DNA of 64,000 bases from positions 4,507 through 68,506 of the forward strand of contig DATKQH010000376.1 in the NCBI GenBank assembly GCA_035532775.1, in the 5' to 3' direction. The notes beneath the pieces were generated by a model, which worked only from the letters and a program-made list of their open reading frames with translations, searched no databases and was not told the origin of the DNA. A program made the position numbers and the translations under genes. The number at the start of each line of letters is the position of its first letter. Position 1 is the stretch's first letter. Shown one piece after another: positions 26,857-44,569 of the stretch. This DNA is from Streptosporangiaceae bacterium (GTDB lineage: Bacteria; Actinomycetota; Actinomycetes; Streptosporangiales; Streptosporangiaceae).

Positions 26857-26943
26857 AGGCCCGAAGGCTATCCCTTGCTGCCCACCGGCCGGCCACCGCC
26901 TTCTCGCGGGCCGGGGATCTGGCAGCCCTACTAGGATCGGACA

Positions 26944-28860: not shown

Positions 28861-28911
28861 GGCGCTGTCCCTGGCGCCAGCGACCGCGGAGCCCGCAATC
28901 CTGCAGCGGCG

Positions 28912-29095: not shown

Positions 29096-29302
29096 TCGCT
29101 GGCCCACCCCGCGATCGCTGTACAGGAGCGGGTGCCGGCCATGGTCGCGTACACCGCCACCGCCGGGACCGAGACGAAGCGGTAGCGCACCCACCCCCGC
29201 GCAGGTCACGGGGATGGTGGCCGGCAACCCGGACAGTGGGCGACGATGACCCGGCAAGCTCTGGTACCGTCACGATCCCGGCGTGTCGTACTTATCCAGG
29301 AC

Positions 29303-29318
29303 TGATCGCACGCGATCA
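29303..29318. promoter_or_regulatory. 7-2-7 perfect palindrome TGATCGCACGCGATCA upstream of the isochorismatase-family gene
   Basis: Read directly. The centre is ~60 bp upstream of ATG 29370. The binding factor is unknown. Confidence 0.25.
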
Positions 29319-29369
29319 CACGACTGCGCAAAGGCCGTGGGATCCGGGCCATGAGAAAGGAAGGCAGGT

Positions 29370-29966
29370 ATGAGGCAGAACGTAAGCGAGCTCGTGGGCG
29401 CACCTGAGAAGACGGCATTGCTCATAGTCGACATGCAGAATGACTTCGTCATTCCCGGCGCACCGGTGGCCGCGCCAGGAGCGCTGGAGATCATGCCGTT
29501 GATCGCTGAACTGGCGACAAGGTCACGGGCGAAGGGGCTTCCGGTCGTCTTCACCCAGGAAATGCATCGCGCTGACGGGTCGGACTTCGGGATAGAGCTC
29601 GAATTCGAGCCCCCGCACTGCCTGGAGGGGACTCCTGGCCTGGACATCGTCGACGACCTGACGCCAGAACCCGGAGACCGCCTGATCCGGAACAAGCGCC
29701 GTTATGACGCGTTTCTCGGCACGGATCTCGATTTTGTCCTGCGCCTGGCCGGGGCGGAGAACCTCATCGTCACCGGAGTCTGCACGGATGTCTGCGTGAT
29801 CTCGACCGTCCAGCATGCCCGCAATCTCGACTACCGGTGCTTCGTCGTGGCCGACGCGGTCGCCGGGACGTCCCCGGAGCGGCATGAGGCAGCGCTGATG
29901 TGCATGGAACACGTCTTCGCCAACGTGGGCACGAGCCGCCAGATCACGGGCTTGTTCAAGCTTTAG
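29370..29966 (+). CDS. Isochorismatase-family cysteine hydrolase (N-carbamoylsarcosine amidase / maleamate amidase-like)
   Basis: ALLIVDMQNDF (Asp), a conserved Lys region, and VTGVCTDVCVISTV (nucleophile Cys). Confidence 0.85.
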   Translation: MRQNVSELVGAPEKTALLIVDMQNDFVIPGAPVAAPGALEIMPLIAELATRSRAKGLPVVFTQEMHRADGSDFGIELEFEPPHCLEGTPGLDIVDDLTPEPGDRLIRNKRRYDAFLGTDLDFVLRLAGAENLIVTGVCTDVCVISTVQHARNLDYRCFVVADAVAGTSPERHEAALMCMEHVFANVGTSRQITGLFKL

Positions 29967-30027
29967 GCGTGCTGACGCGCAGATCTTGATGACAGTAATC
30001 GCGCTGTCCAGCGAGGCCGCGGCTGAC

Positions 30028-30744
30028 TCATGTCGCCGCGCCGCGCTCGTGCAGGTGGCCGAGGATGAGCCTGCCGGCGTTGCGGACGTGCTCGGTCATC
30101 GACGTGCGCGCGGTCTCTGCGTCGTTCTGCTCAAGTGCATGGAGGATCCGGCGATGCTCGATCACGTTGATCGCCTCGATCTGGTCCGCTGACCCGGTCG
30201 CCTTCCAGACGTAGTCCTTGGGGAAGCGCCGCTGCAGGTCGGCGACGAGCCGATCCAGAAGCCGGTTTCCGGCCAGGTCCCGGATGACACCGTGGAATTC
30301 CTCGTTGAAGCGGGTGAGCTGGGCATTGATGAAGCTGTCGGCGGGGCGCTTGCCTACGGACAGTCTCGCCGAAGCGACGACCGCCTCCAGTTGCAACTGA
30401 ATTGTTTCGAGCGCGGCGACCTGATCCCCGGTGAAGGTGGCCGCAGCGAGCGATGCCGCGTACCCTTCGAGCTCGGCGCGCACCGCGTACACCTCGCCCA
30501 GCTCAGACAGGGTGATGACCCGGATTCGGGCGCCCTTGTTGGGGATGAGATCGACCAGGTTCTGCGCCTGGAGCTTCCGCAAAGCCTCTCGCACTGGGGT
30601 CCTGCTCACCCCGAACCGGGCGCAGATCTCCTCTTGCATGAGATGCGAGCCGGGCTCATAGACCCCGTCGAGGATCTCCGCTTCCAGCCGGAACGCGATC
30701 TCATCCGCGTAGCTGGTCAGTGCGATCGGCTCGTTCAGGCTCAT
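30028..30744 (-). CDS. GntR family transcriptional regulator (FadR/FCD subfamily)
   Basis: EEICARFGVSRTPVREALRKLQAQNLV wHTH and a C-terminal FCD-like helical domain. Divergent from the hutU-like operon. Confidence 0.9.
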   Translation of the reverse strand: MSLNEPIALTSYADEIAFRLEAEILDGVYEPGSHLMQEEICARFGVSRTPVREALRKLQAQNLVDLIPNKGARIRVITLSELGEVYAVRAELEGYAASLAAATFTGDQVAALETIQLQLEAVVASARLSVGKRPADSFINAQLTRFNEEFHGVIRDLAGNRLLDRLVADLQRRFPKDYVWKATGSADQIEAINVIEHRRILHALEQNDAETARTSMTEHVRNAGRLILGHLHERGAAT

Positions 30745-30940
30745 GCGGGCTCCGTTTCATGCTGGCCATCGGGCGACTGGCACCCTATCCGGCCCGGCGT
30801 CCCCCGCGCCGTCAGGTGCCTGGGCGGCCGGACCCACAGCGGGCTCATGATACTGCCGGTCCCGCCAGGCCCCGGTTCTGGCAGGTCGCGCTGGTCGGAG
30901 GCGGCACCGGAACTGCAGCATCAAGCTCTTGACATTTTGG

Positions 30941-30950
30941 ATCCATGGAT
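30941..30950. promoter_or_regulatory. Perfect 10-bp palindrome ATCCATGGAT next to a TTGACA hexamer in the GntR / hutU-like divergent intergenic region
   Basis: TTGACA at 30929-30934 and the palindrome at 30941-30950, in a locally AT-richer stretch ~65 bp upstream of ATG 31014. Confidence 0.25.
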
Positions 30951-31013
30951 ACGAAGATTCAACCGTTGCAGCACAAGATCAACTGATGCAGCCTTTGCCC
31001 AGAGAGGGGCGGA

Positions 31014-32687
31014 ATGTCGGCCAGCGCCACCCATGGAGCCGCGCCCACCGGCAGTCACCGCTCCTGCCTGGGCTGGGAGCAGGAGGGGGCACTCCGCTGC
31101 CTGCTCAATAACCTTGACCCAGCCGTGGCCGAGGACCCGGACGCGCTGATCGTCTACGGGGGCCACGGCAAGGCCGCCCGTGACCCGGTCTCCCTGCAGG
31201 CCACCATCGACGCACTGCGTCGGCTGAAGGCAGACGAGACGCTCATCGTCCAGTCCGGGAAGCCGGTAGCGGTACTCCCCAGCCACCCCGACGCACCCCG
31301 GGTACTGATCTCGACCGCCATGATCGTCCCCGCCTGGTCGACCCATGAGAACTTCTGGGCCTACGAAGCGGCCGGGCTGACCATGTATGGGCAGATGACC
31401 GCCGCAGGCTGGTTCTACATCGGGACGCAGGGGATCCTCGGCTTCAGCTACGAGACATTCGCGGCAATCGGGAGGCAGCATTTTGGCGGGCGGCTGGACG
31501 GGTGCCGGGTACTTACCGCGGGCCTGGGCGGCATGGGCGGAGCCCAGGGGCGCGGGATCGCCTACAACGGCGCCAGCGCGCTCATCGTGGAGGTCGACGA
31601 TCGCCGGGCCAAGCGCCGCGCGGACTCCGGGTGGGTTGATCATCTCACCGACGACTACGCCGAGGCGCTGCGGCTTCTCGACCGGGCTGCCGGGCCGGTT
31701 TCCGTCGGGTTGGTGGGCAACATCGCCGAGGTCGCCCCCCGGCTGGTCGCGGACCGCGTCCATTTCGATGTCGCGACCGACCAGACGGCCGCACACGACC
31801 TGCTCCACGGCTACGTTCCGGTCGGGTACACGCCGGACGATGCCGCGGCGGCGGTCCCCGGTGATCGAGTACACGAGGAGGCAGTCCGCCAGTCCCTGAC
31901 CTCCCATGTGGGTGCCTTGCTGGCACTTCGCGAGCGCGGCACCGTGGTCTTCGAGTACGGCAATAACCTCCGCGCCCAGGCCGCGGAGGCTGGGGTGCAG
32001 GGAGCGCTTGACATTCCCGGCTTCGTCGCCGCTTACGTTCGCCCGATCTTTTCCCGCGGCGTCGGGCCATACCGGTGGATCTGTCTCAGCGGGAACCCGG
32101 AGGACCTGCGCCGCACCGAGGAGGCCGTGCTGGGGGCGGCTGGCACTCCCGGGATGGCCCGCTGGTTCGAACGCGCCCGGGCCGACCTGCCTGCCCAAGG
32201 CCTGCCCGCCCGGATCTGCTGGCTCGGTCTGGGGGAACGGCACGAGGCGGGGCTCGCCATCAACAAACTCGTCCGGGAGGGCGTCATCGGCCCGGTCGCA
32301 CTGGGCCGGGACCACATGGACCCGGCATCGGTGGCGTCGCCGTCACGAGAGACCGAGGGGATGCTCGACGGCAGCGACGCGATCGCGGACTGGCCAGTGC
32401 TGTCGGCCATGCTCAACGCGGCCCAGGGAGCAAGCTGGGTGGCTATCGGCAACGGCGGCGGCGTAGGCGTCGGCCGCAGCATCCATTCAGGAATGGTCGT
32501 GATCGCCGACGGATCGGACCTGGCCGAGCGGAAGATCCGGCGCGTGTTCTGGGCCGACCCCGCGCTAGGCCTCGCCCGCTATGCCGACGCCGGGTACCCT
32601 GACGCGCTTGAGAAGTCTCATCAGATGGGTCTGGACCTGCCCAGCTGCCCGCGGGCAGCGGGCACCTCACGGAGGGAGGCCCGGTGA
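31014..32687 (+). CDS. hutU: Urocanate hydratase family protein (HutU-like; physiological substrate uncertain)
   Basis: 557 aa. LLNNLDPAVAEDPDALIVYGGHGKAARD and downstream urocanase blocks (GLGGMGGAQ NAD-binding loop). Confidence 0.8.
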   Translation: MSASATHGAAPTGSHRSCLGWEQEGALRCLLNNLDPAVAEDPDALIVYGGHGKAARDPVSLQATIDALRRLKADETLIVQSGKPVAVLPSHPDAPRVLISTAMIVPAWSTHENFWAYEAAGLTMYGQMTAAGWFYIGTQGILGFSYETFAAIGRQHFGGRLDGCRVLTAGLGGMGGAQGRGIAYNGASALIVEVDDRRAKRRADSGWVDHLTDDYAEALRLLDRAAGPVSVGLVGNIAEVAPRLVADRVHFDVATDQTAAHDLLHGYVPVGYTPDDAAAAVPGDRVHEEAVRQSLTSHVGALLALRERGTVVFEYGNNLRAQAAEAGVQGALDIPGFVAAYVRPIFSRGVGPYRWICLSGNPEDLRRTEEAVLGAAGTPGMARWFERARADLPAQGLPARICWLGLGERHEAGLAINKLVREGVIGPVALGRDHMDPASVASPSRETEGMLDGSDAIADWPVLSAMLNAAQGASWVAIGNGGGVGVGRSIHSGMVVIADGSDLAERKIRRVFWADPALGLARYADAGYPDALEKSHQMGLDLPSCPRAAGTSRREAR

Positions 32688-34699
32688 CAGCGACATCCGC
32701 GCAGGCCCCCAGCTACCAGCTCAGCATCGACACCGGTGGCACGTTCACCGACGGGTTCGTCACCAGCGGGGACCGTTCGGCCCAGGTGAAGGTGGACACC
32801 ACGCCGGACGACCCGACCGAGGGCTTCGCCGCCTGCGTGGCCGCGGCCGCCGAGGCGATGGGCGAAACTGTACCCGCGTTCCTCGCCCGGGCCAGGCTCG
32901 TGCACTTCAGCTCCACGATTGCTACGAACATCGTGGTGCAGCGCACTGGCGCCCAGGTAGGCCTCCTGGTCACCGCAGGCTGCGAGCACGCCCTCTACGG
33001 GAGCCCGCAGGAGGCCAGCAGCCTGGCCGGCTTCGTCCACGCGGGCGCCGTGCGCGGTGTGGACGAGGCCACCGGCCTGGACGGCACCGTGAAGCGACCG
33101 GTCGACCCTGCAAGCCTGGAGGCCGCCGTCAGGGAACTGCTTGAGTACGGCGTGCACATCTTGGTCATCAGCTTCGCCGGGGCGCACCTGAACCCGGCAA
33201 ATGAGCTCGCGGCCAAGGCCCTCATCGAGGCCTCCTACCCCCGGCATTACCTGGGGGCAATCCAGATCGTGCTGTCCTCCCAGCTGTCGCTGCACCCCGG
33301 CGATCACGCCCGAACCGCCCTGGCCGTGGCGAACGCCTACCTTCACCCCGCCCTCGCCCGCAGCCTGTACAAGGCCGAGGATCGGCTGCGGGCCCAGAAG
33401 TTCCAGCGCCCCCTTCTCGTGATCACCACCGACGGGTCGAGCACGCGGGTCGCCAAGACCCGGGCGATCGATACCTACAACTCCGGGCCCAGCTCGGGCG
33501 TACTCGGCGCAGCGATCGTCGCACGCGCTCTGGGGGCCGAGCACGTGGTGACCTTCGATGTCGGCGGCACCACTACCGACGTGGCCTGCATCAGCACGGC
33601 CACCCCGCCGCGCTCCGCCAGCACCGAGTTCGGCGGCCTCACCCTGTCTCACCCGGCCGTGGCCCTGCGGTCCTTCGGGCTGGGCGGCGGCTCGATCATC
33701 GCGGCTGGGCCCGGAGGCGCACCGACGGTCGGCCCGCGCAGCGCGGGCGCGGTGCCCGGTCCGGCCTGCTTCGGTCTCGGTGGCAGCGAGCCCACGCCAA
33801 CGGACGTCTGGCTCGAGCTTGGCTACCTAGAGCCCGGCGAGTTCCTCTCCGGACGGCGCCAGCTCGACCCTGAGAGTGCGCGGGCCGCCATCGCCGCGCT
33901 GGGCGCAGAACTTGGCACCAGCGCGGATGCGGCCGCGCTCGCTGCCCTTGACGCGGTCCATGCCACGCTGGCGGAGCACCTGCAGGCGTGGTCGGCGGGC
34001 GAGCCGGGGCTGACCGGCTCGGACCCGGCCGGAAGGTCGCTGTTCTCCTACGGCGGTGGCGGGGGGCTGCTCGCGGTGCCCGCGGCAGCGGCGCTCGGGA
34101 TCGGCGAGGTGGTGGTGTTCCCGCAGAGCTCAGTGTTCTCCGCGTTCGGCGGCAGTCTCCTGCCGATCGCGCACGCCTACCACGCCGCCGTGCCCGACGT
34201 CTGCGACTCCGAGGTGGTCAGCCAGGTGCTCGCTGAGATGCTCGATCGGGCGGCACGGGACATGCGAGCAGAGGCGGTGCCTGCCGAGGTCGGCCTGGCC
34301 GCCGAGGTGATCCTCAGCGATTTCGCCGGACAGCAGGCCAGCTCCGCCGGGTCCTTCCCGGAGCTGCGCCGCGATCCCGCGAGCGCGGGCGTAGCACTGC
34401 CCGGGCCGGGCGGCCGCGGGCGGCTGAGCTTGCGTATCACCGCGGTGAGCGAGGTGCCGCTGCGCCCGGCGGGACCGCGTCCCGATGCCGCGGCCACCCG
34501 GGCGCGGAAGGTCCGTTTCGCCGATGGGATGCGGGACCTGGTGGTGTCGGGCGGGCTCGGCTGCCCGGACGCGACCCCTGTGACCGGGCCGGCGTTCCTG
34601 GCCGCGCCCGATACCACGGTGTTCGTCCCGGCCGGCTGGACCGCAGAATTCGGCGCCCTCGGATACGGGATCGTGCGGAGGCAGGGCAATGACAGCTGA
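32684..34699 (+). CDS. Hydantoinase A / oxoprolinase / acetone-carboxylase beta-type ATPase subunit (copy 1)
   Basis: IDTGGTFTDG and FDVGGTTTDV ASKHA-type motifs. GTGA overlap with the hutU-like stop. Confidence 0.85.
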   Translation: MTATSAQAPSYQLSIDTGGTFTDGFVTSGDRSAQVKVDTTPDDPTEGFAACVAAAAEAMGETVPAFLARARLVHFSSTIATNIVVQRTGAQVGLLVTAGCEHALYGSPQEASSLAGFVHAGAVRGVDEATGLDGTVKRPVDPASLEAAVRELLEYGVHILVISFAGAHLNPANELAAKALIEASYPRHYLGAIQIVLSSQLSLHPGDHARTALAVANAYLHPALARSLYKAEDRLRAQKFQRPLLVITTDGSSTRVAKTRAIDTYNSGPSSGVLGAAIVARALGAEHVVTFDVGGTTTDVACISTATPPRSASTEFGGLTLSHPAVALRSFGLGGGSIIAAGPGGAPTVGPRSAGAVPGPACFGLGGSEPTPTDVWLELGYLEPGEFLSGRRQLDPESARAAIAALGAELGTSADAAALAALDAVHATLAEHLQAWSAGEPGLTGSDPAGRSLFSYGGGGGLLAVPAAAALGIGEVVVFPQSSVFSAFGGSLLPIAHAYHAAVPDVCDSEVVSQVLAEMLDRAARDMRAEAVPAEVGLAAEVILSDFAGQQASSAGSFPELRRDPASAGVALPGPGGRGRLSLRITAVSEVPLRPAGPRPDAAATRARKVRFADGMRDLVVSGGLGCPDATPVTGPAFLAAPDTTVFVPAGWTAEFGALGYGIVRRQGNDS

Positions 34700-35042
34700 G
34701 TACCGCGTGACTGAGTACCTCGTCATCGACCTTGACAGCGAGCGATGGAAGTGCCAGCGATGCGGCGCCGACCTCGGGTCGTCACGCGCCAACTACAAGG
34801 AGGGCTGCCTGGTCGCCGAGCGCGACCCCACCGAGGTGCACCCGCCGCGGGTCGTCGGGCACTACACCTTCGCCCCGGATCCGCAGTGGTGCCGGCTCAT
34901 CGAGTTCTACTGCCCGGGCTGCCTGACCCTGGTCGAAACGGAGTACCTGCCGCCCGGGCATCCGATCACCCATGACATCGAGATCGACATCGACTCTCTC
35001 AAGGCGTCGGTGACTGCGCACGGCGAGGAAGGACCGGCGTGA
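34689..35042 (+). CDS. Acetone/acetophenone carboxylase gamma-subunit-like zinc-binding protein
   Basis: 117 aa. WKCQRCGADLG...FYCPGCLTLVETEYLPPGHP is typical of the acetone-carboxylase gamma family. Overlaps both neighbours. Confidence 0.8.
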   Translation: MTAEYRVTEYLVIDLDSERWKCQRCGADLGSSRANYKEGCLVAERDPTEVHPPRVVGHYTFAPDPQWCRLIEFYCPGCLTLVETEYLPPGHPITHDIEIDIDSLKASVTAHGEEGPA

Positions 35043-37174
35043 GCGGATCCATTGACATCGACATCGGCGGCACGTTTACCGACTGCTACGCCCAGCTCGG
35101 CAGCGAGATCGCCTGGTGCAAGACCCGCACCACCGGCTACGACCTCAGCCGGGGCATGGTCCAGGCGATCGAGGACGCCGCGAGCAGGCTCGGCGTCACC
35201 ACCACCGAGCTGCTTGGCCGCGCCGACATCATCAGGTACTCGACCACACTGGCGCTCAACAGCCTTCTCGAGGCGAAGGGACCCCGGCTCGGCTATGTCA
35301 CCACCGAGGGCTTCGAGGACAACCTGCTCATCGGCCGGGGCAGCCAGTGGTCGGACGGGCTGAGCATCAAGCAGCAGCGCAACGTCGCGCGCGCGCGCAA
35401 GCCCGCGCCGCTCATCGGCCGCGAACTCATGGTCGGCGTCAAGGCGCGGATGGACCACCGCGGGCACGAGGTCCGCCCCCTCGATGAGGAGGACTTCCTG
35501 CGCAAGCTCGACTACCTCGTGGACCAGGGCGTCCGCGGCTTCGTGGTCTGCCTGCTGTGGTCGTACGTCAACCCCGCCCACGAGCTGCGCATCCGCGAGC
35601 TCATCGAGCTGGAGTACGGAGAAAGCTACCTGGGCCACACGCCGGTGTTCCTGTCGAGCGAGAACTCCCCGCGCCGGCTGGAATACACCCGGGCGACCAC
35701 CACCTTGCTCAACGCCTACCTCCACGCCTCGATGTACAGCGAGCTGTCCGGGATCGGGCAGCGGCTGCGGGCGGGAGGCTACCGTGCCCCCCTGATCATG
35801 GTGCACAACACCGGCGGCATGGCGTCGGTGCTGCGGTCCAGCGCCATCCAGACCTTCTCTGGAGGGCCAGTGGCCGGGCTGATGGGCAGCGCCCACCTGG
35901 GCCGCGCCTACGGGTTCGAGAATGTGGTCGTCACTGACATGGGTGGCACCAGTTTCGACATCGGCCTCATCGTCTCCGGCAGCACCCGGTTCTACCAGCT
36001 CGCTCCGACGGTCGACCGCTGGCTTATCGACGCGACGATGCTCGACACCCACTCCATCGGGGCGGGGGGCGGGTCGATCGCCCGCATCAACACCGATGTA
36101 GGCGGCCGTCTTGAGGTGGGCCCGGAGAGCGCCGGGTCCATGCCCGGACCGGCCTGCTACGGCCAGGGCGGCCGGGAGCCCACGGTGACCGATGCGGATC
36201 TGGTCCTAGGCTACGTTAACCCGGCCCGCTTCAACGGAGGCCAGCTGGCGATCAGCCCCGCGCGCGCCGAGCGCGCGCTGCGGGACCGTATCGCCGAGCC
36301 GCTCGGCGTGTCGGCGACCGACGCCGCGCTGCTCGTCAAGCGGATCGTGGACGCGCACATGGGCGCGGTCATCCACAAGGAGACCGTGCTCAAGGGCTAC
36401 GACCCCCGTGACTTCGTCATCTTCGCCGCAGGCGGGGCCGGGCCGCTGCACGCTTGCGGGTACGCGGAGGCCGCCGGGATGACCCGGGTCGTGATCTTCC
36501 CGTTCGCGCCCGTGTTCTGCGCGTATGGATCTTCCACCATGGACGTCCTGCATGTGTACGAGAGGTCGGCTCACTTCACCCTGTTCGACGGCAACACCAA
36601 AGAGTGGCTCGCGGAGATGAGCGGGTTCAACGCGGTCGTGGACGCACTGGCCGCGCAGGCCGCACGGGACTTTGCGGGCGAGGGGTTCGACGTCAGCGCC
36701 GTGGAGTACTCGCTGGAGCTGGACATGAAGTTCGGCGGGCAGCTCAACGTCAAGCGCGTGGCCGCGCCGTCAATCCGCCTCGCCGACGTTACGGACGTCC
36801 GCCGGCTGTACCAGGCGTTCGAGGTCGAGTACTCGGAGGCGTACAGCCCGCTGGGCCTGAACCCCGACGCTGGAGTCGAGATCGACGCGCTGGTACTCAA
36901 GGCGCGGCTGCGCCAGCCCCAGCGCCCCCCGCCCATGCCGGAGCGGCCCGCAGGTGGCGCTGCGTCGCTGGGCACCCGTCCCGCGGTGTGGGAGCTCGGC
37001 ACGGGGCCGGTGGATACGCCGGTTTTCGAGGCCGCGGTGCTGGCGCCGGGCACAGTTGTCACCGGCCCGGCCCTGGTGGAAGCCGAGACGACGACCACGG
37101 CCGTGGCACCCGGCTGGTCCCTCGTGGTGGACGAGCGATCCGCCTTCATCCTCACCTACGAGCAGGGGCAGTGA
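35039..37174 (+). CDS. Hydantoinase A / oxoprolinase-type ATPase subunit (copy 2)
   Basis: IDIGGTFTDC and TDMGGTSFDI motifs. 711 aa. Confidence 0.85.
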   Translation: MSGSIDIDIGGTFTDCYAQLGSEIAWCKTRTTGYDLSRGMVQAIEDAASRLGVTTTELLGRADIIRYSTTLALNSLLEAKGPRLGYVTTEGFEDNLLIGRGSQWSDGLSIKQQRNVARARKPAPLIGRELMVGVKARMDHRGHEVRPLDEEDFLRKLDYLVDQGVRGFVVCLLWSYVNPAHELRIRELIELEYGESYLGHTPVFLSSENSPRRLEYTRATTTLLNAYLHASMYSELSGIGQRLRAGGYRAPLIMVHNTGGMASVLRSSAIQTFSGGPVAGLMGSAHLGRAYGFENVVVTDMGGTSFDIGLIVSGSTRFYQLAPTVDRWLIDATMLDTHSIGAGGGSIARINTDVGGRLEVGPESAGSMPGPACYGQGGREPTVTDADLVLGYVNPARFNGGQLAISPARAERALRDRIAEPLGVSATDAALLVKRIVDAHMGAVIHKETVLKGYDPRDFVIFAAGGAGPLHACGYAEAAGMTRVVIFPFAPVFCAYGSSTMDVLHVYERSAHFTLFDGNTKEWLAEMSGFNAVVDALAAQAARDFAGEGFDVSAVEYSLELDMKFGGQLNVKRVAAPSIRLADVTDVRRLYQAFEVEYSEAYSPLGLNPDAGVEIDALVLKARLRQPQRPPPMPERPAGGAASLGTRPAVWELGTGPVDTPVFEAAVLAPGTVVTGPALVEAETTTTAVAPGWSLVVDERSAFILTYEQGQ

Positions 37175-37176
37175 CG

Positions 37177-39234
37177 ATGAGCGTTCTCGGCAACCTGTTG
37201 GCAACCGGCATGAAGCCGGAGTCCCCGTCCGACGAAGAGCTGGAGGCGATGCAGTCGCTGCGGCTGGGCGACTACGAGATCCTCTCCGAGAAGCTCGTCC
37301 TCATCGCCCAGGAGGGCAAGGAGGTCATGACCCGAATGGGCATCTCCTCCATGCTGCACTCCGGGGACACGCTCGTCGCCGTTTACACCGCGGCCGGGGA
37401 TCTAGTCGCGCCTGTCTGCGGCACCTACCTGCACTCGGTCACGGGCCAGATCCCGATCAAGTTCATTCTCGCCGAGTACGCCGGCGACCCGTCGGTCGGC
37501 GTGCGCGAAGGTGACATCTTCTACTGCAATGAGGCCCTGTACGGCGGGATCCACAATCCGGACCAGTTCGCCCTCATGCCGGTGTTCAACGAAGGCGAGC
37601 TAGTGGCGTGGGCAGTGTGCGGGGCGCATCAGAGCGAGACCGGCGGAGCCGAGCCGGGCGGGGAGATCACCCAGGCACGGACCCGGCACGACGAGGGAAT
37701 GAAGTTGTCGCCGATGAAGATCGGCGAGAATTACCTGCTCCGGGAAGACTTGCTGCGGATGATGGAGAACTTCATCTCCCGGGCTCCGCGGATGCAGGTG
37801 ACCGACGTGAAGGCGCGGGTTGCCGCGTGCGACCGGGTCCGCATCCGAGTACAAGAACTGGCCAGAAAGCATGGCAACACGGTCCTGCGCGGGCTGTTCC
37901 GCCGGATGATCCAGCAGACCTCGGCGGGCGTGCGCCGCAGAATCGCGAGCTGGCCGGACGGGACTTACCGGCACGTCGTGTTCATGGACACCACTGGGCA
38001 CGATGCGTACCTGCTTCGCGCCGTGGTGGCGGTCACCGTGGCCGGCGACCGGCTGATCATCGATTTCGAGGGCACCTCGCCCGAGCACGAAGGGTCCTAC
38101 AACGCCTTCGCCCACATCATCGCGGCCCACTGTGCGGTGAACCTTTACCAGTTCCCGTTCCACGACTTCCCCATTTCCTCGGGGATGCTGGAGCACATCG
38201 ACATCCGCGTGCCCAAGGGCTCGTTCTTCGATGCCGACAGCGAGGCGGCGGTGAGCTGCTCACCGCTGGTAGGCGCACTGGTGTTCCCCCTGCTCGGGGT
38301 GGCCCTTTCGAAGATTATGTACTCAACCCCGCAGCGGGATCTCGTGTGCGGCTTCTGCACCTCCAGCGCCTCGGCGGTGATGGTGAGCGGGGTGAACCAG
38401 CACGGCTACCGGGTGACCGACTTCATGGGCTACCCGCTTAACGCCTACGGCCTGGCCGCGCGGCACGACATGGACGGCGTGGACGTGTTTGGCTTCCCGC
38501 ACGGTCCGTGGGGCAAGGCGCCGGATGTTGAGGACATCGAGCAGGAGTTCCCGGTGCTGCACTTGTACGAGCATCAGCTCAGGGACACGTGCGGCTTCGG
38601 CCGGTACCGGGGCGGGTGCGGCGCCGCAGTCTGCTACATGGTGTACGGCAGCCGCTACCTCGCGTTCACATCCAGCCAGAAGGAATCAAAATTCCCGTCG
38701 GCAAACGGCCTCTTCGGAGGGTATGCCGCCACCACGCTCCCCGGCATCCGGGTTATGGGCTCGGACATTCTCGAGCGGATGCGGGCGGGCGACGCTGACA
38801 TCCCCACCGATGACTATGGCCTCGCCGCCGCGGACCCGGGTCCCGGCGAGCTGATACTGGAGCATCAGACCCGGGGCGTCAGCATCCTGCATGAGGGCGA
38901 CATCCTGGCCGCGAGTACCAACGGCGGCGGCGGCTACGGCGACGTGCTGGAACGGGAACCTGACGAGGTGCTGTCGGATGTGGCTCGCTCGATCATCTCG
39001 GCGTCGGTGGCGCGCGACGTGTACTGCGTCGTCTTCGATCCGGAGACGATGCTCCTCGACGTCGGGGGCACCACGAAGGCACGAGAAGCCGCACGGCAGG
39101 ACCGGGCCCGCCGGGGACGCCCGTACGTCGAGTTCGCCGCCGAGTGGAGCACTCGCCGCCCGCCCGAAGAGATCCTCACCTACTACGGAGCGTGGCCGTC
39201 GGCGGCCCGTAATCGCGAGGTGGTACGGATTTGA
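37177..39234 (+). CDS. Hydantoinase B / oxoprolinase / acetone-carboxylase alpha-type subunit
   Basis: ATG 37177 lies within ORF 36454-39234, whose upstream part is a shadow of the previous gene. HyuB-like blocks GDIFYCNEALYGGIHNPD, FGRYRGGCG and GGGGYGD. Confidence 0.85.
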   Translation: MSVLGNLLATGMKPESPSDEELEAMQSLRLGDYEILSEKLVLIAQEGKEVMTRMGISSMLHSGDTLVAVYTAAGDLVAPVCGTYLHSVTGQIPIKFILAEYAGDPSVGVREGDIFYCNEALYGGIHNPDQFALMPVFNEGELVAWAVCGAHQSETGGAEPGGEITQARTRHDEGMKLSPMKIGENYLLREDLLRMMENFISRAPRMQVTDVKARVAACDRVRIRVQELARKHGNTVLRGLFRRMIQQTSAGVRRRIASWPDGTYRHVVFMDTTGHDAYLLRAVVAVTVAGDRLIIDFEGTSPEHEGSYNAFAHIIAAHCAVNLYQFPFHDFPISSGMLEHIDIRVPKGSFFDADSEAAVSCSPLVGALVFPLLGVALSKIMYSTPQRDLVCGFCTSSASAVMVSGVNQHGYRVTDFMGYPLNAYGLAARHDMDGVDVFGFPHGPWGKAPDVEDIEQEFPVLHLYEHQLRDTCGFGRYRGGCGAAVCYMVYGSRYLAFTSSQKESKFPSANGLFGGYAATTLPGIRVMGSDILERMRAGDADIPTDDYGLAAADPGPGELILEHQTRGVSILHEGDILAASTNGGGGYGDVLEREPDEVLSDVARSIISASVARDVYCVVFDPETMLLDVGGTTKAREAARQDRARRGRPYVEFAAEWSTRRPPEEILTYYGAWPSAARNREVVRI

Positions 39235-39947
39235 ACAGGCGGGCCCGGACCCGGGCGGTGCTCGCTGGCGGCAAGGACGTCGTGTTCGCCCCCCTCGCCT
39301 GGTCCCGGCTGCCGGAATTCGTCCGCACGCCGGCGCCCGGCGAGTTCTGGCTGGACACTGCCGTCACCCAGCGGATGCTGGGTGACGCCGGTGATGTCTG
39401 CGCCGCAGACGCCCTCGCCGTGCCGCTGGTGCCCTGCCTCCGTTCGCATGGGGGAGCTGCCCCCATCGGCCATCCGGACGAAATCGCTGGGCTCCCCGAC
39501 GTCCTGGCCGCCATCAGGCTGATCGGGCGGCTCGCCGCAGTGGGGGCAGTCGGGCAGATCGCCGAGCTGCCCACCCTCGGTGAGCTGGCCGCGCTGCTAC
39601 CGGAGGCAGTCACCGAGGACACCGAGGATGCGCTGAGCGATTTGGTGCGGGCCGGCCTGGAGGCAGGCGGCGACGCCGTAGCCGTGCGCGGCACTGACCA
39701 CGCTGACGTCCGCAGGACCGTCGACGTGGTCGCCCCCCTGGCCGGCTTCTACGGGGCCCCCGTGCTCGGGCTGGACGGTGCGCGGGGCTGGGTCGCCGAC
39801 AACGGCTTTCCGGTGGGGATGCTCGGCCCTGCGGGCGACTGGCCACGGCTGGCCCGCGGCCTGATCCTCACCAGAGGTGACATCACCGGATGGTGGACCC
39901 CGAGCCAGGTGCGCGCGGTGCTGCGTGGTCGCGGGGAGGTGGTCTGA
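39231..39947 (+). CDS. Hypothetical protein, translationally coupled to the HyuB-like gene
   Basis: TTG start overlapping the upstream stop. GC3-rich coding character. I recognise no family. Confidence 0.5.
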   Translation: MNRRARTRAVLAGGKDVVFAPLAWSRLPEFVRTPAPGEFWLDTAVTQRMLGDAGDVCAADALAVPLVPCLRSHGGAAPIGHPDEIAGLPDVLAAIRLIGRLAAVGAVGQIAELPTLGELAALLPEAVTEDTEDALSDLVRAGLEAGGDAVAVRGTDHADVRRTVDVVAPLAGFYGAPVLGLDGARGWVADNGFPVGMLGPAGDWPRLARGLILTRGDITGWWTPSQVRAVLRGRGEVV

Positions 39948-40970
39948 GTGGGGGCTCGGGAGCCGCGGCGGCCGGAGCGGGTGGTGATCATCGGCGCTGG
40001 GACGATGGGCGCCCGGATCGCGCTTTTCTTCGCCCAGGCAGGCCTCACGGTATGCGCGACCTCGCGGCGTCCGGAGACGCTCAGAGCGGCCGGCGCCACC
40101 ATCCGTTCCGCGCTCGCTGCGCCGGTGACCGGCAGCCATCCGGCTGCATGGCCGTCGGTAGCGGCACCTGAGCACCCCGAGGAAATCCTCGCCCGGATCC
40201 GGCTGACCTCCGACGCCGACGACGAGCTCGGGACAGCCGATCTGGTGGTGGAGACGATCCGCGAGGACCTCGGCGAGAAGATCACTGTGCTCGGGCGGGC
40301 CGGGTCACGGGTACGGTCCGACGCCATCGTGACGACGAATACCTCCTCCCTGGACCTGGCTGCCCTGAGTGAAGCGGTGCCGGGGCCGGAACGGTTCGTC
40401 GGCTTGCACTGGTTCAACCCGGCGGACCTGGTCGAGCTCGTCGAGGTTGTGCCGACCCCGGGCACCGCCTCCACCGTCGTGGAGACGCTGCGGTCCTGGC
40501 TGGCCGAGCTGGGTAAGGCGCCTGTGGTGCTCGGTCATGCCGTGCCGGGCTTCATCGCCAACCGGCTGCAGTACGCGCTGTTGCGCGAGGCATACGCCCT
40601 AGTCGCCGGTGGTGTCTGCACATGGGCCGATGCGGACCTCGCGGTAGTCCGGGGCCTTGGCCCCCGGTGGGCGGCAATAGGGCCGTTCCAGAGCATGGAC
40701 CTCGCCGGGCTCGATGTGCACCTCGCGGTGGCCCGCACCCTTTTCCCGGACCTGGCGGTGGGCACCGCGCCACCGGAGCTGCTAGCGGACCTGGTGAAGG
40801 CTGGCCACCTGGGCGCCAAGTCGGGCCACGGGCTGCTCGGCGACTACCCGCCGGAAAGGCAGGAGATCGTTGCCCGGCTGCGCGACGCGACGCTGCGGCT
40901 GATGCACGTGGTGCGGGAGACAGCAGCGGGCCAGCAGCCCATGCACGTAACGACAGAAAGGCCAGCGTGA
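39948..40970 (+). CDS. 3-hydroxyacyl-CoA / 3-hydroxybutyryl-CoA dehydrogenase family protein
   Basis: VVIIGAGTMGARIA Rossmann motif, then GLHWFNPADLVELVEVV and PGFIANRLQYALLREA. Confidence 0.85.
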   Translation: MGAREPRRPERVVIIGAGTMGARIALFFAQAGLTVCATSRRPETLRAAGATIRSALAAPVTGSHPAAWPSVAAPEHPEEILARIRLTSDADDELGTADLVVETIREDLGEKITVLGRAGSRVRSDAIVTTNTSSLDLAALSEAVPGPERFVGLHWFNPADLVELVEVVPTPGTASTVVETLRSWLAELGKAPVVLGHAVPGFIANRLQYALLREAYALVAGGVCTWADADLAVVRGLGPRWAAIGPFQSMDLAGLDVHLAVARTLFPDLAVGTAPPELLADLVKAGHLGAKSGHGLLGDYPPERQEIVARLRDATLRLMHVVRETAAGQQPMHVTTERPA

Positions 40971-41071
40971 TGATCTTTAAGCCGCCGAATCAGGCCGTCG
41001 CGTCGCACCGGCACCGAAGCCGTGGCGTCGGCGCCCGGCCATGACCAAGGGAACGCAGCGGCTCGTTTACC

Positions 41072-41122
41072 CTGGCAGATACCGACAACTCAGAGACGGC
41101 AATGTTTGGCAATATCTGCCAG
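41072..41122. promoter_or_regulatory. 10-bp inverted repeat CTGGCAGATA ... TATCTGCCAG enclosing a TTGGCAAT-N3-TGCCAG motif, in the long leader of the NCS1 permease gene
   Basis: Arms at 41072-41081 and 41113-41122 are exact reverse complements. TTGGCAATATCTGCCAG at 41106-41122 resembles the perfect palindrome at 52378-52394. A further TTGGCAA lies at 41181-41187. Confidence 0.4.
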
Positions 41123-41309
41123 CGACAAGTTATCAAGGCGCCCTTACCGTAAACCCACAACCATAGCACGATTAACTAGGTTGGCAACTGCCCCGGACCA
41201 GCTCTTTCCGGAGTACTGCCGCAGCCCAGCGGCTGATTCCGTTCAGGAGCCGAGGCGTGCTTTAAGGATCAGGCCTCCCACCATCAATTACTGGGAGAAG
41301 GGAAGAGCG

Positions 41310-42740
41310 ATGAGTACGAATTCTCAGGACCCTAGCCAGCACCTCTACACCGATGAAGTGATGGTGGTCGAACCGCACGGCATCGAGCACATCGGAGACA
41401 ATGAGCGGCACGGAAAGCCATACCTCCAGGGAACGATTTGGTTTGCTGCCCAGATCAACTTCGTGACCGTGCTGATCGGCTCACTCGCGGTCGTATTCGG
41501 GCTCGGGTTCTGGGTCGCCGTCATCACCTGCGTCACGGCCAATATCGTCGGAGCGCTCATGAACTCGGCGGCTGTGGCGATGGGGCCGAAGCTTGGGATG
41601 CCCCAGATGCCCATGAGCCGGGCTGCCTTCGGTTACGTCGGGAATTACCTTCCAGCGTTCCTCGCCTCGACGCTGTTCGTGGGGTATTTCGCCACGACCA
41701 ACATTGTCGGCGCGGAAACCGTGCAGCAGATCTGGAGCGGGGTGCCCTACACCCCGGTCGCGATCATCCTCGGCATCGTCGCCATCGGACTGACCATCTA
41801 CGGCTACAACCTGGTGCATTCGATCGAGCGGTACATGTCGATGGCCCTCGGGGCCGTCTTCGTCATCCTGACGATCACGGCTTTCGTGCACGGGGTGGGG
41901 CCGAGCCACACCACCACCGTGCACGGCACGGCCTTCTGGGAGTCGGTGGCCCTGGAGTTCATGATCATCTTCTCCTTCACCGCCAGCTGGGCACCTTACG
42001 CGTCTGACTTCTCCCGGTACCTCCCCGCAAGCACCCCGAGCCGCAAGCCGTTCGGCTGGTCCTTCCTGGGCATGCTCCTGGGCACATCCTGGATGAATAT
42101 CGTGGGCATCTACCTCGGCACGCTCGCCGACAAGGGCGGCATCCTGCCGAGCATCAGGACGATCTCCCACGGATTCGCCGACGTGGCCTACGTCGGGATC
42201 ATCGTGGGCGGGCTGATGGTGTGCGCGATCAATGCCTACAGCGGGGCACTGTCCGGGATCACCTGGAATATCCCGCTGAAGCGAGTGCCCGCGGTAATCC
42301 TCATCGGCTCGGTCAGCATCGTGCTGTCGGTAGCGTTCGGCGGACCCAAATTCCAGGCATCGCTTGAGGACTTCCTGTACCTGGTCGCGTACTTCGTCAC
42401 CCCGTGGCTCGCCGTCGTCATCATTGACTTCTGGGTACTGAACTCCGGCGGCAGGGGCTACCCGGACCTTGCCGAGTTCTACAAGCGGACCGGTGCCTTC
42501 GGGTCAGTCCGCTGGGCGGGCTTCCTCTCCTTCGTCATCGGCATAGCCGTGTCGGTGCCGTTCATGGCCACGGTGCTCTACACCGGGCCGATCGGCAAAG
42601 CCATGGGCGGCGCGGATGTCAGCTACGGCGTCAGCGCCCTCGTCGCCGGCGTCCTGTACTACGTGTGGGGCAGGCGGCAAGCGCGCGCCCGCGGCACCGC
42701 GACTGTCCGCAGTGCGGTCACAGGCTCCGTGACGCAATGA
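41310..42740 (+). CDS. NCS1 family purine-cytosine-type permease
   Basis: Starts MSTNSQDP with GGGAGAAGGGAAG upstream. About 12 hydrophobic segments. The N-terminal IEHIGDNERHGKP motif is typical of CodB/FCY2-like permeases. Confidence 0.8.
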   Translation: MSTNSQDPSQHLYTDEVMVVEPHGIEHIGDNERHGKPYLQGTIWFAAQINFVTVLIGSLAVVFGLGFWVAVITCVTANIVGALMNSAAVAMGPKLGMPQMPMSRAAFGYVGNYLPAFLASTLFVGYFATTNIVGAETVQQIWSGVPYTPVAIILGIVAIGLTIYGYNLVHSIERYMSMALGAVFVILTITAFVHGVGPSHTTTVHGTAFWESVALEFMIIFSFTASWAPYASDFSRYLPASTPSRKPFGWSFLGMLLGTSWMNIVGIYLGTLADKGGILPSIRTISHGFADVAYVGIIVGGLMVCAINAYSGALSGITWNIPLKRVPAVILIGSVSIVLSVAFGGPKFQASLEDFLYLVAYFVTPWLAVVIIDFWVLNSGGRGYPDLAEFYKRTGAFGSVRWAGFLSFVIGIAVSVPFMATVLYTGPIGKAMGGADVSYGVSALVAGVLYYVWGRRQARARGTATVRSAVTGSVTQ

Positions 42741-44512: not shown

Positions 44513-44569
44513 ATCGGTGACAAAGGGAAATGAGGCAGGGCTTTCCGGTTGATAGTTCGAGAAAGGGAA

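Follow-up and report, generated by a model that had tools for sequence, protein, structure and literature searches.

We describe a seven-gene operon in a 64,000-nucleotide stretch of DNA from a Streptosporangiaceae bacterium (GenBank assembly GCA_035532775.1, contig DATKQH010000376.1; the whole stretch is hereafter called the window). In this operon a gene of the urocanase family, here called HutUL, stands directly in front of the genes for an ATP-dependent enzyme related to acetophenone carboxylase (Apc) and for an NAD dehydrogenase. The combination of genes is undescribed: our literature searches turned up no publication connecting a urocanase-family gene to an enzyme of the Apc, acetone carboxylase (Acx) or hydantoinase (Hyu) type. 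The operon probably serves to degrade a compound with a nitrogen-containing ring. More specifically, we tentatively propose, at somewhat less than an even chance, that the region 30028-40970 forms a catabolic operon under the control of a repressor, that its substrate is a small N-heterocyclic compound, most likely of the imidazole type, and that the operon works by a carboxylation route.

Organization of the operon

The GC content of the window is about 68%, and at the protein level the window matches a metagenome-assembled genome of the Streptosporangiaceae with 100% identity. The operon consists of seven open reading frames (ORFs) on the plus strand between 31014 and 40970, each with a strong bias towards G or C in the third codon position (GC3). 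The first gene, HutUL (31014-32687, 557 aa), encodes the three urocanase domains of Pfam (PF01175, PF17391 and PF17392) and scores 682 bits on the model TIGR01228. It is followed by four genes that encode an ApcA-like alpha' subunit of the HyuA type (32684-34699, 671 aa, GTG start; Hydantoinase_A), an ApcB-like gamma subunit, which is a small zinc subunit of the Acetone_carb_G family (34689-35042, 117 aa; PF08882), an ApcC-like alpha subunit, the second of the HyuA type (35039-37174, 711 aa; Hydantoinase_A), and an ApcD-like beta subunit of the HyuB type (37177-39234, 685 aa, ATG start; Hydantoinase_B). The last two genes encode a protein of 238 aa with an ApcE-like (epsilon) fold match (39231-39947) and an NAD dehydrogenase of the HAD (3HCDH) family (39948-40970; Pfam 3HCDH_N and 3HCDH).

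The genes are tightly packed. HutUL and alpha' overlap by the 4 nt GTGA (32684-32687), and a ribosome-binding sequence, GGAGGGAGG, lies 5' of the alpha' GTG that overlaps the HutUL stop codon. The overlap amounts to 11 nt between alpha' and gamma, to 4 nt between gamma and alpha, and again to 4 nt (TTGA) between beta and the 238-aa ORF; alpha and beta are separated by 2 nt, and the 238-aa ORF and the dehydrogenase by none.

An initial annotation, made from the letters of the window, had drawn attention to this gene set, and every gene that it named is present where it placed it, including the GTGA overlap of the HutUL stop and the HyuA start at 32684. It had described HutUL as translationally fused into the operon. 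The overlapping stop and start codons are indeed of the kind expected for translational coupling, but there is no fused polypeptide. It had also held that HutUL lies outside a canonical hut operon with no other hut genes nearby, and we agree: hutH, hutI, hutG and hutF are all missing from the GC3-supported ORFs scanned across the 64-kb window. An Rfam scan of the window found no RNA elements.

An enzyme of the Apc branch

Family membership was scored with Pfam and NCBIfam models and by pairwise HMMER alignment to sequences from the PDB. According to Weidenweber et al. 2017 (PMC5214803), three branches of the relevant enzymes can be told apart by gene organization, phylogeny and subunit length, and their gene organizations are hydAB, acxABC and apcABCD(E). 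The Apc order, apcA-B-C-D(-E), corresponds to the subunits alpha', gamma, alpha, beta and (epsilon), and it is by this order and by possessing alpha', gamma and epsilon that the Apc branch differs from the two-gene hydantoinases. Known family members that act as hydrolases consist of two subunits or of a single fused chain and are without alpha', gamma and epsilon. In addition, Apc beta subunits are about 670-685 aa long, and Apc gamma subunits are without the N-terminal extension of about 50 aa found in Acx gamma (PMC5214803).

By every sequence-level criterion the enzyme of the operon is predicted to belong to the Apc branch, and to form a complete Apc-type complex of five subunits. The gene order in 32684-39947 is alpha'-gamma-alpha-beta-epsilon-like, with 671, 117, 711, 685 and 238 aa, respectively. 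The lengths agree as well: beta has 685 aa where Apc has 684, alpha has 711 where Apc has 732, and gamma has 117, compared with 129 in Apc and 168 in Acx. Finally, alpha', gamma, alpha and beta are all most similar to their Apc counterparts, as judged by a ranking of scores rather than by a full tree. The alpha subunit aligns over its full length with Apc alpha (5l9w_B) at 740 bits, against 334 bits for caprolactamase, 318 for acetone carboxylase and 308 for N-methylhydantoinase. The beta subunit scores 511 bits over 669 residues with 5l9w_A, against 154 for acetone carboxylase and 123 and 116 for hydrolases; alpha' scores 338 bits with 5l9w_b, against 207 and 197 for hydrolases; and gamma scores 154 bits with 5l9w_C, its next match being at 37. 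The top-ranking NCBIfam models for these four genes are, in order, ApcA, ApcB, ApcC and ApcD.

The residues on which the chemistry of such a complex depends are largely in place. Both ATPase subunits, alpha and alpha', keep the PHOSPHATE-1, PHOSPHATE-2 and ADENOSINE motifs, the ATP motifs of alpha' being DTGGTFTD, DVGGTTTD and GAVPGP, and gamma keeps all four zinc cysteines (CxxC ... CPGC). The alpha fingerprint R/KERiDsxG is kept in part, as KARMDHRG where Apc has RERIDSSG. In Apc, alpha is the proposed ketone kinase and alpha' the proposed bicarbonate kinase. At two of the proposed bicarbonate-site positions, alpha' of the window differs from Apc: E248 is replaced by Asn and K281 by Asp.

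These results bear on two expectations of the initial annotation. It had seen in the gene set an Apc-like logic of alpha', gamma, alpha and beta rather than that of a two-subunit hydantoinase or caprolactamase, and both the best matches of the subunits and the order apcABCD(E) are in keeping with this. It had also raised the possibility that the Hyu proteins belong to 5-oxoprolinase clades; they fall outside the 5-oxoprolinase, caprolactamase and N-methylhydantoinase clades (for alpha, 740 bits to Apc against 334 and 308 to the last two). Membership of the hydrolase branch, whose hydantoinases, oxoprolinases and caprolactamases are encoded by two genes (hyuA-hyuB) or by one fused gene, does not agree with five subunits. 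A duplicated two-subunit hydantoinase was considered as well, and is ruled out: one HyuA paralog matches Apc alpha' and the other Apc alpha, and there are gamma and epsilon subunits besides.

Judged by its sequence, however, the enzyme of the operon is not acetophenone carboxylase itself (EC 6.4.1.8) and should not be given that name, because all four NCBIfam equivalog cut-offs are missed, by about 1.5- to 3.3-fold (ApcA 375 of 1250 bits, ApcB 168 of 250, ApcC 797 of 1500 and ApcD 557 of 1500), and because a pocket Gln has become Asp. The residues proposed, in a tentative assignment, to line the acetophenone pocket of Apc alpha are L81, F281, N282, P285, I333, Q344 and T345 (PMC5214803). At these seven positions the alpha subunit of the window has, in order, L, F, S, P, V, D and T, in a mapping that combines pairwise HMMER alignments with the tentative site assignment of the 2017 structure. 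The Asp that replaces Apc Gln344 is Asp336 of alpha, and it is invariant in 119 of 119 close homologs. In acetone carboxylase the equivalent residue is Ala and in N-methylhydantoinase (7hk5) Asp; in caprolactamase it is a Gln that forms part of the lining of the substrate channel (PMC8453981). An invariant Asp at this position would fit a substrate with a ring N-H or a basic group.

The epsilon-like subunit

The 238-aa protein has no match in Pfam or NCBIfam, and the initial annotation had called it an orphan. Its relatives are few: 19 homologs turned up in a word-based search, and a profile search of 1.84 billion proteins yielded 43 representative clusters. Its TTG start is backed by a conserved N-terminus in the homologs, an alternative GTG being located at 39258. 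An AlphaFold2 model of the protein, built with 18 homologs, has a pLDDT of 85 and a pTM of 0.85, and its top Foldseek match in the PDB is 9fou_D, the epsilon subunit ApcE (E 4.6e-9, TM 0.74, 21% identity). The next matches, barrels of the URO-D and MtaA type, have E values of about 5e-4 and are thus weaker by five orders of magnitude. On the strength of this model the 238-aa protein is predicted to be an ApcE-like epsilon subunit, and the orphan label can be dropped; with it, all five Apc subunits would therefore be encoded. The identity of the protein as a dehydratase or a URO-D-like enzyme was considered and not adopted, given the E values of about 5e-4 for URO-D and MtaA against 4.6e-9 for ApcE.

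A sequence profile of the epsilon-like family, run against the PDB sequences, returned only noise (E >0.1) and did not find ApcE. This failure agrees with the observation that epsilon subunits are far more divergent than the other Apc subunits (PMC5214803). The epsilon-like gene is likewise the least conserved gene of the operon across loci, with identities of 28-72%, although its place after the apcD-like gene is constant. A metagenome scan with the epsilon alignment found one locus.

A distinct paralog of urocanase

HutUL belongs to the urocanase family: it has the three domains, the NAD loop and the conserved catalytic residues, and its best match in the PDB is the urocanase 1x87, at 618 bits over the full length. 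HutUL sequences score 682-731 bits on TIGR01228 (682 in the window), compared with about 892 for the canonical HutU encoded beside related clusters. Because its 682 bits pass the cut-off of 375, public records call the protein "urocanate hydratase".

Nonetheless HutUL is not HutU in the strict sense, since it falls in a separate clade, changes 21 of 155 near-invariant positions and has no hut genes in its operon. The clade was recovered by neighbour joining of 16 HutUL sequences with 73 canonical urocanases from bacteria and archaea, based on tblastn-derived fragments: the HutUL sequences form a single monophyletic group, restricted to actinobacteria, on a long stem. The mean distance between HutUL and canonical enzymes is 0.50, compared with 0.36 among the canonical enzymes, and a genome scan shows a gap in identity between 67% and 55%. 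The 155 columns are those with at least 95% conservation in canonical urocanases, and the changes include Q147G, G148F, P183G, D377E, N474S/A, H489G, Y498R and H533Y. By alignment, as the initial annotation had suggested should be checked, HutUL retains its NAD-binding and catalytic residues: it keeps the NAD-binding glycine loop and Y52, Q131, T133, R362, D443, H444, R455, E456 and E458. Residues are numbered along what we take to be the sequence of P. putida urocanase, used as a ruler only; the column statistics are independent of it.

Two other urocanase-like families must be considered. On the NCBIfam models for thiourocanate hydratase and S-methyl-thiourocanate hydratase (NF058530 and NF058531), HutUL scores 540 and 566 bits, below the cut-offs of 930 and 880, and below even the canonical HutU proteins, which reach 643-702 bits on these models. 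Its matches to PDB entries of the thiourocanate-hydratase type (420-460 bits) are likewise weaker than those to canonical urocanases. Going by these scores, HutUL belongs to neither family. The best explanation of the sequence data is that HutUL is a neofunctionalized paralog of urocanase, distinct from canonical HutU. The possibility that it is the ordinary urocanase of its organism is ruled out by its separate clade, its lower hutU score and the coexistence of canonical copies.

The dehydrogenase

The initial annotation had called the last gene of the operon a 3-hydroxyacyl-CoA dehydrogenase. The protein does belong to the HAD (3HCDH) fold family, and the His/Glu/Asn catalytic motifs are visible in its alignment, but its closest relative is the CoA-independent FHMPC dehydrogenase (NCBIfam 184 of 500 bits; PDB 4om8, 157 bits), and the NCBIfam models of CoA-dependent 3-hydroxyacyl-CoA dehydrogenases all stay below their cut-offs. 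The operon contains no gene for an enoyl-CoA hydratase, a thiolase or a CoA ligase. The dehydrogenase is probably CoA-independent as well, to judge from these family scores.

Conservation across loci

The arrangement of the seven genes is not due to chance, because the same order is found in 11 of 11 related loci with enough DNA. The initial annotation had proposed a survey of genome neighbourhoods, and this survey shows that the adjacency recurs: in each of the 11 loci with DNA upstream, HutUL stands directly 5' of the apcA-like gene, often with overlapping stop and start codons. Where loci reach far enough downstream, the epsilon-like gene and then the dehydrogenase follow, with the exception of one locus (L017), in which the dehydrogenase gene is upstream and oppositely oriented and the apcD-like gene is followed by a 237-aa ORF that has no detectable similarity. 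We refer to operons of this kind as type I clusters. Their hosts are metagenome-assembled genomes (MAGs) resembling Streptosporangiaceae, Solirubrobacterales, a UBA lineage of Actinomycetota, and Naasia (Microbacteriaceae). The sampling of loci is biased by the search patterns and by how far the contigs extend.

Canonical hut genes occur near two type I clusters. At locus L087 the operon is the divergent neighbour of a canonical set consisting of an IclR regulator, hutU (893 bits), hutI (302 bits, above the cut-off) and hutF, and an NCS1 gene and a HAL-family gene are nearby; at L017 a canonical hutU (892 bits) is located 7.5 kb away. Because canonical hut genes coexist with it, HutUL appears not to be a spare urocanase, and the pathway appears to touch histidine or urocanate metabolism.

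Two loci deserve separate remarks. At L087, on a 2.5-Mb ENA contig, HutUL (6111-7779) is split into two ORFs of 448 and 118 aa, and the apcA-like gene likewise into ORFs of 492 and 114 aa; this points to frameshifts, whether by sequencing error or by decay. Locus L086, on a contig of a Nitrospira MAG, carries Apc-like genes, an epsilon gene and the dehydrogenase (212-8967) outside the Actinomycetota; the contig ends inside apcA, and a gene for a family III CoA-transferase follows the operon.

A second context of HutUL, which the initial annotation did not foresee, constrains any model of its function. In these type II clusters HutUL, the dehydrogenase and the GntR/FCD regulator are kept, and there are no Apc-like genes. 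In their place stand genes for HAL-like lyases, a small cupin and a protein of the ornithine-cyclodeaminase family, and often for a betaine ABC transporter of the OpuAC type. The hosts are Streptomyces, Nonomuraea and some Streptosporangiaceae and Solirubrobacteraceae. Between the two types HutUL is 67-71% identical and the dehydrogenase 40-56%, which is as high as among deep members of type I, and the GntR/FCD regulators are orthologous. In the tree, the HutUL sequences of type II make up a nested sub-clade, those of type I being paraphyletic to it.

The HAL-like lyases of type II are without the Ala-Ser-Gly MIO motif, and a missing MIO motif is a mark of trimethylammonia-lyases such as ergothionase and histidine-betaine lyase (bioRxiv 10.1101/2025.08.13.670108). 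The best solved relatives of the cupin are the entries 8QFL-8QFR, named cysteine dioxygenase (E 5e-16). We take 8QFL to be the ergothioneine dioxygenase of Thermocatellispora. The type II cluster looks like an undescribed extension of oxidative ergothioneine or hercynine catabolism. Type II loci, with two HAL-like lyases, are L004/L005, L010-L016, L018 and L053, at around locus positions 6000-18000; a sulfite-dehydrogenase-like gene is also present in L004.

Regulation

A gene for a GntR/FCD regulator (30028-30744, minus strand; Pfam GntR and FCD) is divergent from the operon, and its ortholog stands beside HutUL in both cluster types. A putative promoter of the operon with a palindromic operator can be read from the sequence at 30929-30958 on the plus strand: it consists of a putative -35 element TTGACA (30929-30934), the operator GGATCCATGGATAC (30939-30952) and a -10-like element GAAGAT (30953-30958). 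A generic scan for promoters and terminators did not call the operon promoter and found nothing above chance, and the promoter role of 30929-30958 is accordingly given as putative. The operator motif GKATCCAYGGATMC has one exact match in the window, in the intergenic region between the GntR gene and HutUL. It is found upstream of HutUL in 13 loci, which include both cluster types, and in 0 of 78 other fetched loci.

The shared palindrome points to one repressor in common for the module of HutUL and dehydrogenase, probably with one effector in common. The GntR/FCD protein would repress the operon at the palindrome, which overlaps the promoter, and would probably sense a carboxylate intermediate that is common to the type I and the Apc-free type II clusters.

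A proposed pathway

The gene set, the family membership of the subunits, the conservation of the arrangement and the common operator are established by the analyses above, and from them we infer each of the following chemical steps. A neutral heteroaryl alkyl ketone would be taken up, the NCS1 permease encoded after the operon being the likely importer; permeases of this family carry neutral N-heterocycles. The alpha subunit would phosphorylate the enol of the ketone and alpha' would activate bicarbonate, so that the complex, at a cost of two ATP, would make a 3-oxo-3-heteroaryl-propanoate. Such a beta-keto acid is the product class of Apc and the textbook substrate class of HAD-family dehydrogenases, and the dehydrogenase would reduce it to the 3-hydroxy acid. 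Loss of water, either spontaneous or catalysed by HutUL, would then give a urocanate-like acrylate. Aryl-acrylates are the substrate class of urocanase, and HutUL would hydrate or rearrange the acrylate using its bound NAD+. The product would go on to ring cleavage by canonical HutI and HutF, which are encoded next door in some genomes, or by accessory amidases.

What favours carboxylation of an enolizable ketone is the presence of five subunits with an intact second ATPase, the close likeness to Apc, the nearly unchanged pocket and the fact that alpha', gamma and epsilon occur in none of the known hydrolases of the family. For the ring, an imidazole is the likeliest choice in view of the chemistry of the urocanase family, the hut neighbours and the histidine-betaine context of the sister cluster. 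We also entertain, a little less confidently than the carboxylation route as such, that the operon encodes a second member of the Apc branch that fixes CO2, independently of biotin and with two ATP, onto an N-heteroaryl (imidazolyl) ketone, and that the dehydrogenase and the altered urocanase paralog then lead the product into, or alongside, histidine and urocanate catabolism.

Several considerations weigh against this proposal. We know of no natural source of an imidazolyl methyl ketone. The dehydrogenase is kept in the Apc-free type II clusters, where a lyase would yield the acrylate directly and a reductive role has no obvious place, and its closest characterized relative oxidizes a pyridine aldehyde rather than a beta-hydroxy acid. 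The dehydration has to be assumed, since there is no gene for a dehydratase, and there is no CoA ligase or thiolase, unlike in the acetophenone pathway. The carboxylation route leaves unexplained a recurrent hydrolase of the isochorismatase type and a formamidase-like amidase. The invariant Asp336 is shared with N-methylhydantoinase, and the assignment of the Apc substrate site is itself tentative (PMC5214803).

Alternative explanations

The initial annotation had offered two hypotheses, an ATP-dependent ring opening and an ATP-dependent carboxylation. Five subunits and two intact ATPases favour the second; the first is unlikely, but among the alternatives to the proposed pathway it survives best. 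It would take the form of a hydantoin route, in which HutUL hydrates a urocanate analog to an imidazolone-propionate, the dehydrogenase oxidizes a C2 hydrate of this to a ring of the hydantoin-5-propionate type, the Apc-like complex opens the ring with ATP, and the isochorismatase-family hydrolase removes the carbamoyl group. Such a route mirrors creatinine degradation, which leads from N-methylhydantoin through N-carbamoylsarcosine to sarcosine, and it suits the NCS1 family, which includes carriers of hydantoin and allantoin. In both cluster types HutUL would act first and the dehydrogenase second. In six loci the core has an isochorismatase-type hydrolase beside it, its triad intact, and in one of these (L091) the hydrolase gene lies inside the operon. 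The closest characterized homolog of the dehydrogenase oxidizes an aldehyde hydrate, which is analogous to a carbinolamine, and Asp336 corresponds to an Asp in N-methylhydantoinase 7hk5, whereas Apc and caprolactamase have Gln. Moreover, since bicarbonate is required by caprolactamase, hydrolases and carboxylases of the family are not sharply separated (PMC8453981). On the other hand, the known hydrolases of the family are without alpha', gamma and epsilon (PMC5214803), whereas all three are present and conserved here and the second ATPase is intact. Alpha and beta also score two to four times higher to Apc than to N-methylhydantoinase or caprolactamase. In the ergothioneine pathway as known, the ring of hydantoin-5-propionate is opened with no expenditure of ATP, and the type II clusters would be left with no ring-opening enzyme.

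The ring of the substrate could also be a pyridine, although this is improbable. The architecture would be that of the proposed carboxylation pathway, with a ketone of the acetylpyridine type, and the ring would be degraded by neighbouring enzymes resembling those of the nicotinate pathway. The nearest match of the dehydrogenase is an enzyme of vitamin B6 catabolism that oxidizes a pyridine aldehyde, the Apc of A. aromaticum reportedly accepts 4-acetylpyridine, and the accessory genes described below (Mo hydroxylase, alpha/beta-hydrolase, isochorismatase-family amidase and a protein of the maleate-isomerase/AMDase family) resemble the lower pathway of nicotinate or nicotine, presumably NicAB, NicD, NicF and NicE. 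These accessory genes are, however, absent from L017, L087 and L088. To our knowledge every characterized enzyme of the urocanase family acts on imidazole acrylates, and HutUL keeps the residues that are conserved in such enzymes. Two loci place the cluster beside canonical hut genes, and the sister cluster has MIO-less enzymes like histidine-betaine lyases together with an enzyme like ergothioneine dioxygenase.

A slightly poorer prospect still is that HutUL is a reversible hydratase that adds water to the beta-carbon of an acrylate, and that the dehydrogenase oxidizes the product to a beta-keto acid, which serves as a hub: in type I clusters the Apc complex would feed this hub or recapture the decarboxylation-prone ketone, and in type II clusters the acrylate would come from betaine lyases. 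HutUL and the dehydrogenase would then keep one constant role in both cluster types, the 21 changed near-invariant positions and the distance of HutUL from the bacterial and archaeal canonical enzymes (0.50, against 0.36 within them) would find a reason, and the coexistence with canonical HutU would be explained. Yet this scheme needs a new type of reaction in a family with none known, neither cluster type has a conserved enzyme that consumes the beta-keto acid, and the type II cupin resembles thiol dioxygenases, not enzymes that cleave diketones.

Least probable by far is that an ordinary urocanase gene merely happens to precede an acetophenone-carboxylase operon for aromatic ketones with no pathway in common: HutUL does pass the NCBI hutU cut-off (682 against 375 bits) and is named urocanate hydratase in public records, and a genome note calls such an operon acetophenone carboxylase (PMC11737030), but 11 of 11 loci, from Streptosporangiales-like, Solirubrobacterales and Microbacteriaceae hosts, show the adjacency, with stop and start codons that overlap; HutUL forms a clade apart from the canonical HutU with which it coexists in L017 and L087; a common operator precedes HutUL in both cluster types; and the GC3-supported ORFs scanned in the window include no hutH, hutI or hutG.

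Neighbouring genes

The initial annotation had also listed a GntR regulator, an NCS1 permease and an isochorismatase-family hydrolase as flanking genes. All three are present, but the hydrolase is a separate transcription unit here and the permease follows the operon after a gap of at least 51 nt. The isochorismatase-family cysteine hydrolase (29370-29966, plus strand; PF00857, 164 bits) is convergent with the GntR gene and has the motifs of an Asp21/Lys109/Cys138 triad. Its best NCBIfam model is biuret hydrolase, at 104 of 370 bits, and RutB and nicotinamidase are also below their cut-offs. A hydrolase of this type stands beside the core in six loci (the window, L001, L006, L007, L090 and L091), and in L091 its gene overlaps the stop codon of the dehydrogenase. 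The NCS1-family permease, a likely importer whose start codon is uncertain (41022-42740, plus strand; PF02133, 131 bits; TIGR00800 below cut-off), has counterparts adjoining the core in L008, L009, L087 and L089.

Further downstream there follow a thiamine pyrophosphate (TPP) enzyme resembling benzoylformate decarboxylase (42830-44500, minus strand, start approximate; three TPP domains, NCBIfam 394 bits against a cut-off of 493), an alpha/beta-hydrolase (44549-45298, plus strand; Pfam Abhydrolase_6) and an amidase of the formamidase/acetamidase family (45172-46452, plus strand; Pfam FmdA_AmdA; FmdA of NCBIfam 262 bits against a cut-off of 500). A homolog of the TPP enzyme adjoins the core in L001, L008 and L090; in L090 it is followed by the pair of alpha/beta-hydrolase and amidase, and an FmdA-like gene is found in L008. 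A distal block on the minus strand (52538-61876; Pfam and NCBIfam) encodes a regulator of the PucR type, a DUF6282 protein, a zinc alcohol dehydrogenase (Zn-ADH), a pyridoxal-phosphate (PLP) enzyme resembling diaminopropionate ammonia-lyase, and the large, small and FAD subunits of a molybdenum (Mo) hydroxylase of the xanthine-dehydrogenase type. In L001, L008 and L090 the core has the Mo hydroxylase as its direct neighbour, with or without DUF6282 or the PLP enzyme, and by this recurrence the distal block may be functionally linked to the core. Altogether, the TPP enzyme, alpha/beta-hydrolase, formamidase-family amidase, Mo hydroxylase, DUF6282 and diaminopropionate-ammonia-lyase-like enzyme recur in four loci, the window included, either next to the core or at most 20 kb away. 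These accessory genes point to the breakdown of an N-heterocycle, but do not identify the compound.

Other genes of the window are recorded here as observations. Beyond the formamidase-like gene, 46593-49988 (minus strand) encodes a D-2-hydroxyacid dehydrogenase and, in a 784-aa ORF, an iron-sulfur protein resembling LutB/LldF, and L001 and L090 have a GlcD-like FAD oxidase; these genes hint at a step from an alpha-hydroxy acid to an alpha-keto acid upstream of the benzoylformate-decarboxylase-like enzyme. Directly after the Mo-hydroxylase genes, 61910-63417 (minus strand) encodes a protein of the arylmalonate-decarboxylase/maleate-isomerase family and a CoA transferase. Together with the alpha/beta-hydrolase and the isochorismatase-family amidase, these presumably recall the lower nicotinate pathway.

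Upstream, a long co-directional cluster (3933-19771, plus strand) encodes DsrE-like proteins, HdrC/HdrB-like Fe-S/CCG proteins, an HdrA-like flavoprotein, an LplA-like lipoate ligase and a GcvH-like lipoyl carrier, as well as two radical-SAM proteins, ETF alpha and beta and a DsrE_2 protein. We take it to resemble the sulfur-oxidizing sHdr-LbpA system, which would be unusual in Streptosporangiaceae. An ORF of 1014 aa (24541-27585, minus strand) encodes a fusion of an APH-type phosphotransferase and a class-III aminotransferase (PRK06148, 725 bits, below cut-off); an SDR gene (26944-27741, plus strand) overlaps it on the other strand, and gene calls are doubtful there. The approximately 1.6 kb between the SDR and isochorismatase genes (27742-29369) contain ORFs at 28279-28962, 28415-29257 and 27856-28233, which have no Pfam match and no clear GC3 signal.

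Significance

Neither hypothesis of the initial annotation was, to its knowledge, a described pathway, and our literature searches found none either. If the proposed carboxylation pathway is correct, the operon represents an undescribed catabolic pathway in soil Actinomycetota (Streptosporangiaceae, Solirubrobacterales and Microbacteriaceae), in which an ATP-dependent, CO2-fixing step is added to the catabolism of histidine-derived or related N-heterocycles, and which is related by descent to an equally undescribed branch of ergothioneine or hercynine degradation. It would also correct metabolic models that take HutUL as evidence of histidine utilization.

At present the system is hidden by annotation: HutUL is called "urocanate hydratase", the Apc-like subunits "hydantoinase/oxoprolinase" or "acetophenone carboxylase", the epsilon subunit "hypothetical" and the dehydrogenase "3-hydroxyacyl-CoA dehydrogenase". 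For example, an operon of this kind in Paraconexibacter appears in a 2024 genome note as an acetophenone carboxylase core complex (PMC11737030). As of 2017, one enzyme of the Apc branch had been characterized (PMC5214803), and our literature searches found no later one. The operon offers the Apc branch a second tractable system with a different substrate, in the form of a compact and conserved gene set in culturable soil actinobacteria (relatives of Solirubrobacter and of Naasia). It also gives a further system in which to study the epsilon subunit, the role of ApcE being still debated. HutUL, for its part, would be a third neofunctionalized clade of urocanases, after the thiourocanate and S-methyl-thiourocanate hydratases, with the advantage of two genomic contexts. 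The predictions can be tested with commercially available substrates.

Comparison with known systems

The closest known system is ApcABCDE of A. aromaticum EbN1 (5L9W, and 9FOU with epsilon). It has the same five types of subunit in the same order, and shares with the operon the ATP motifs of both kinase subunits and the Cys4 site of gamma. The epsilon-like protein of the window has 238 aa against 278 modelled residues in ApcE, and the two are alike in fold and position, not in sequence. The operon has no benzoylacetate-CoA ligase, and is flanked instead by a urocanase paralog and a HAD-family dehydrogenase; its hosts are soil actinobacteria, whereas Apc comes from a denitrifying betaproteobacterium.

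With the N-methylhydantoinase and N-carbamoylsarcosine amidase pair, CapAB and 5-oxoprolinase, the operon has the HyuA/HyuB superfamily in common. As in hydantoin-type pathways, an isochorismatase-family hydrolase and an NCS1 permease are nearby, and N-methylhydantoinase 7HK5 shares the Asp at the position of Apc Gln344. By contrast, N-methylhydantoinase and CapAB have two subunits or a fused chain, without alpha', gamma and epsilon (PMC5214803, PMC8453981), and the alpha and beta subunits of the window are two to four times less similar to N-methylhydantoinase and caprolactamase than to Apc.

Canonical HutU (1X87, 2FKN, 1UWK) has the same three-domain architecture as HutUL over the full length, at about 50-55% identity, but in the loci examined HutUL was not seen in one operon with hutH, hutI or hutG. 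A precedent for urocanase paralogs re-tuned to substituted urocanates, in the catabolism of histidine betaines, is provided by the thiourocanate and S-methyl-thiourocanate hydratases (8Q9U/8Q9V and 7NED), to which HutUL is linked by the betaine-lyase-like genes of its type II clusters.

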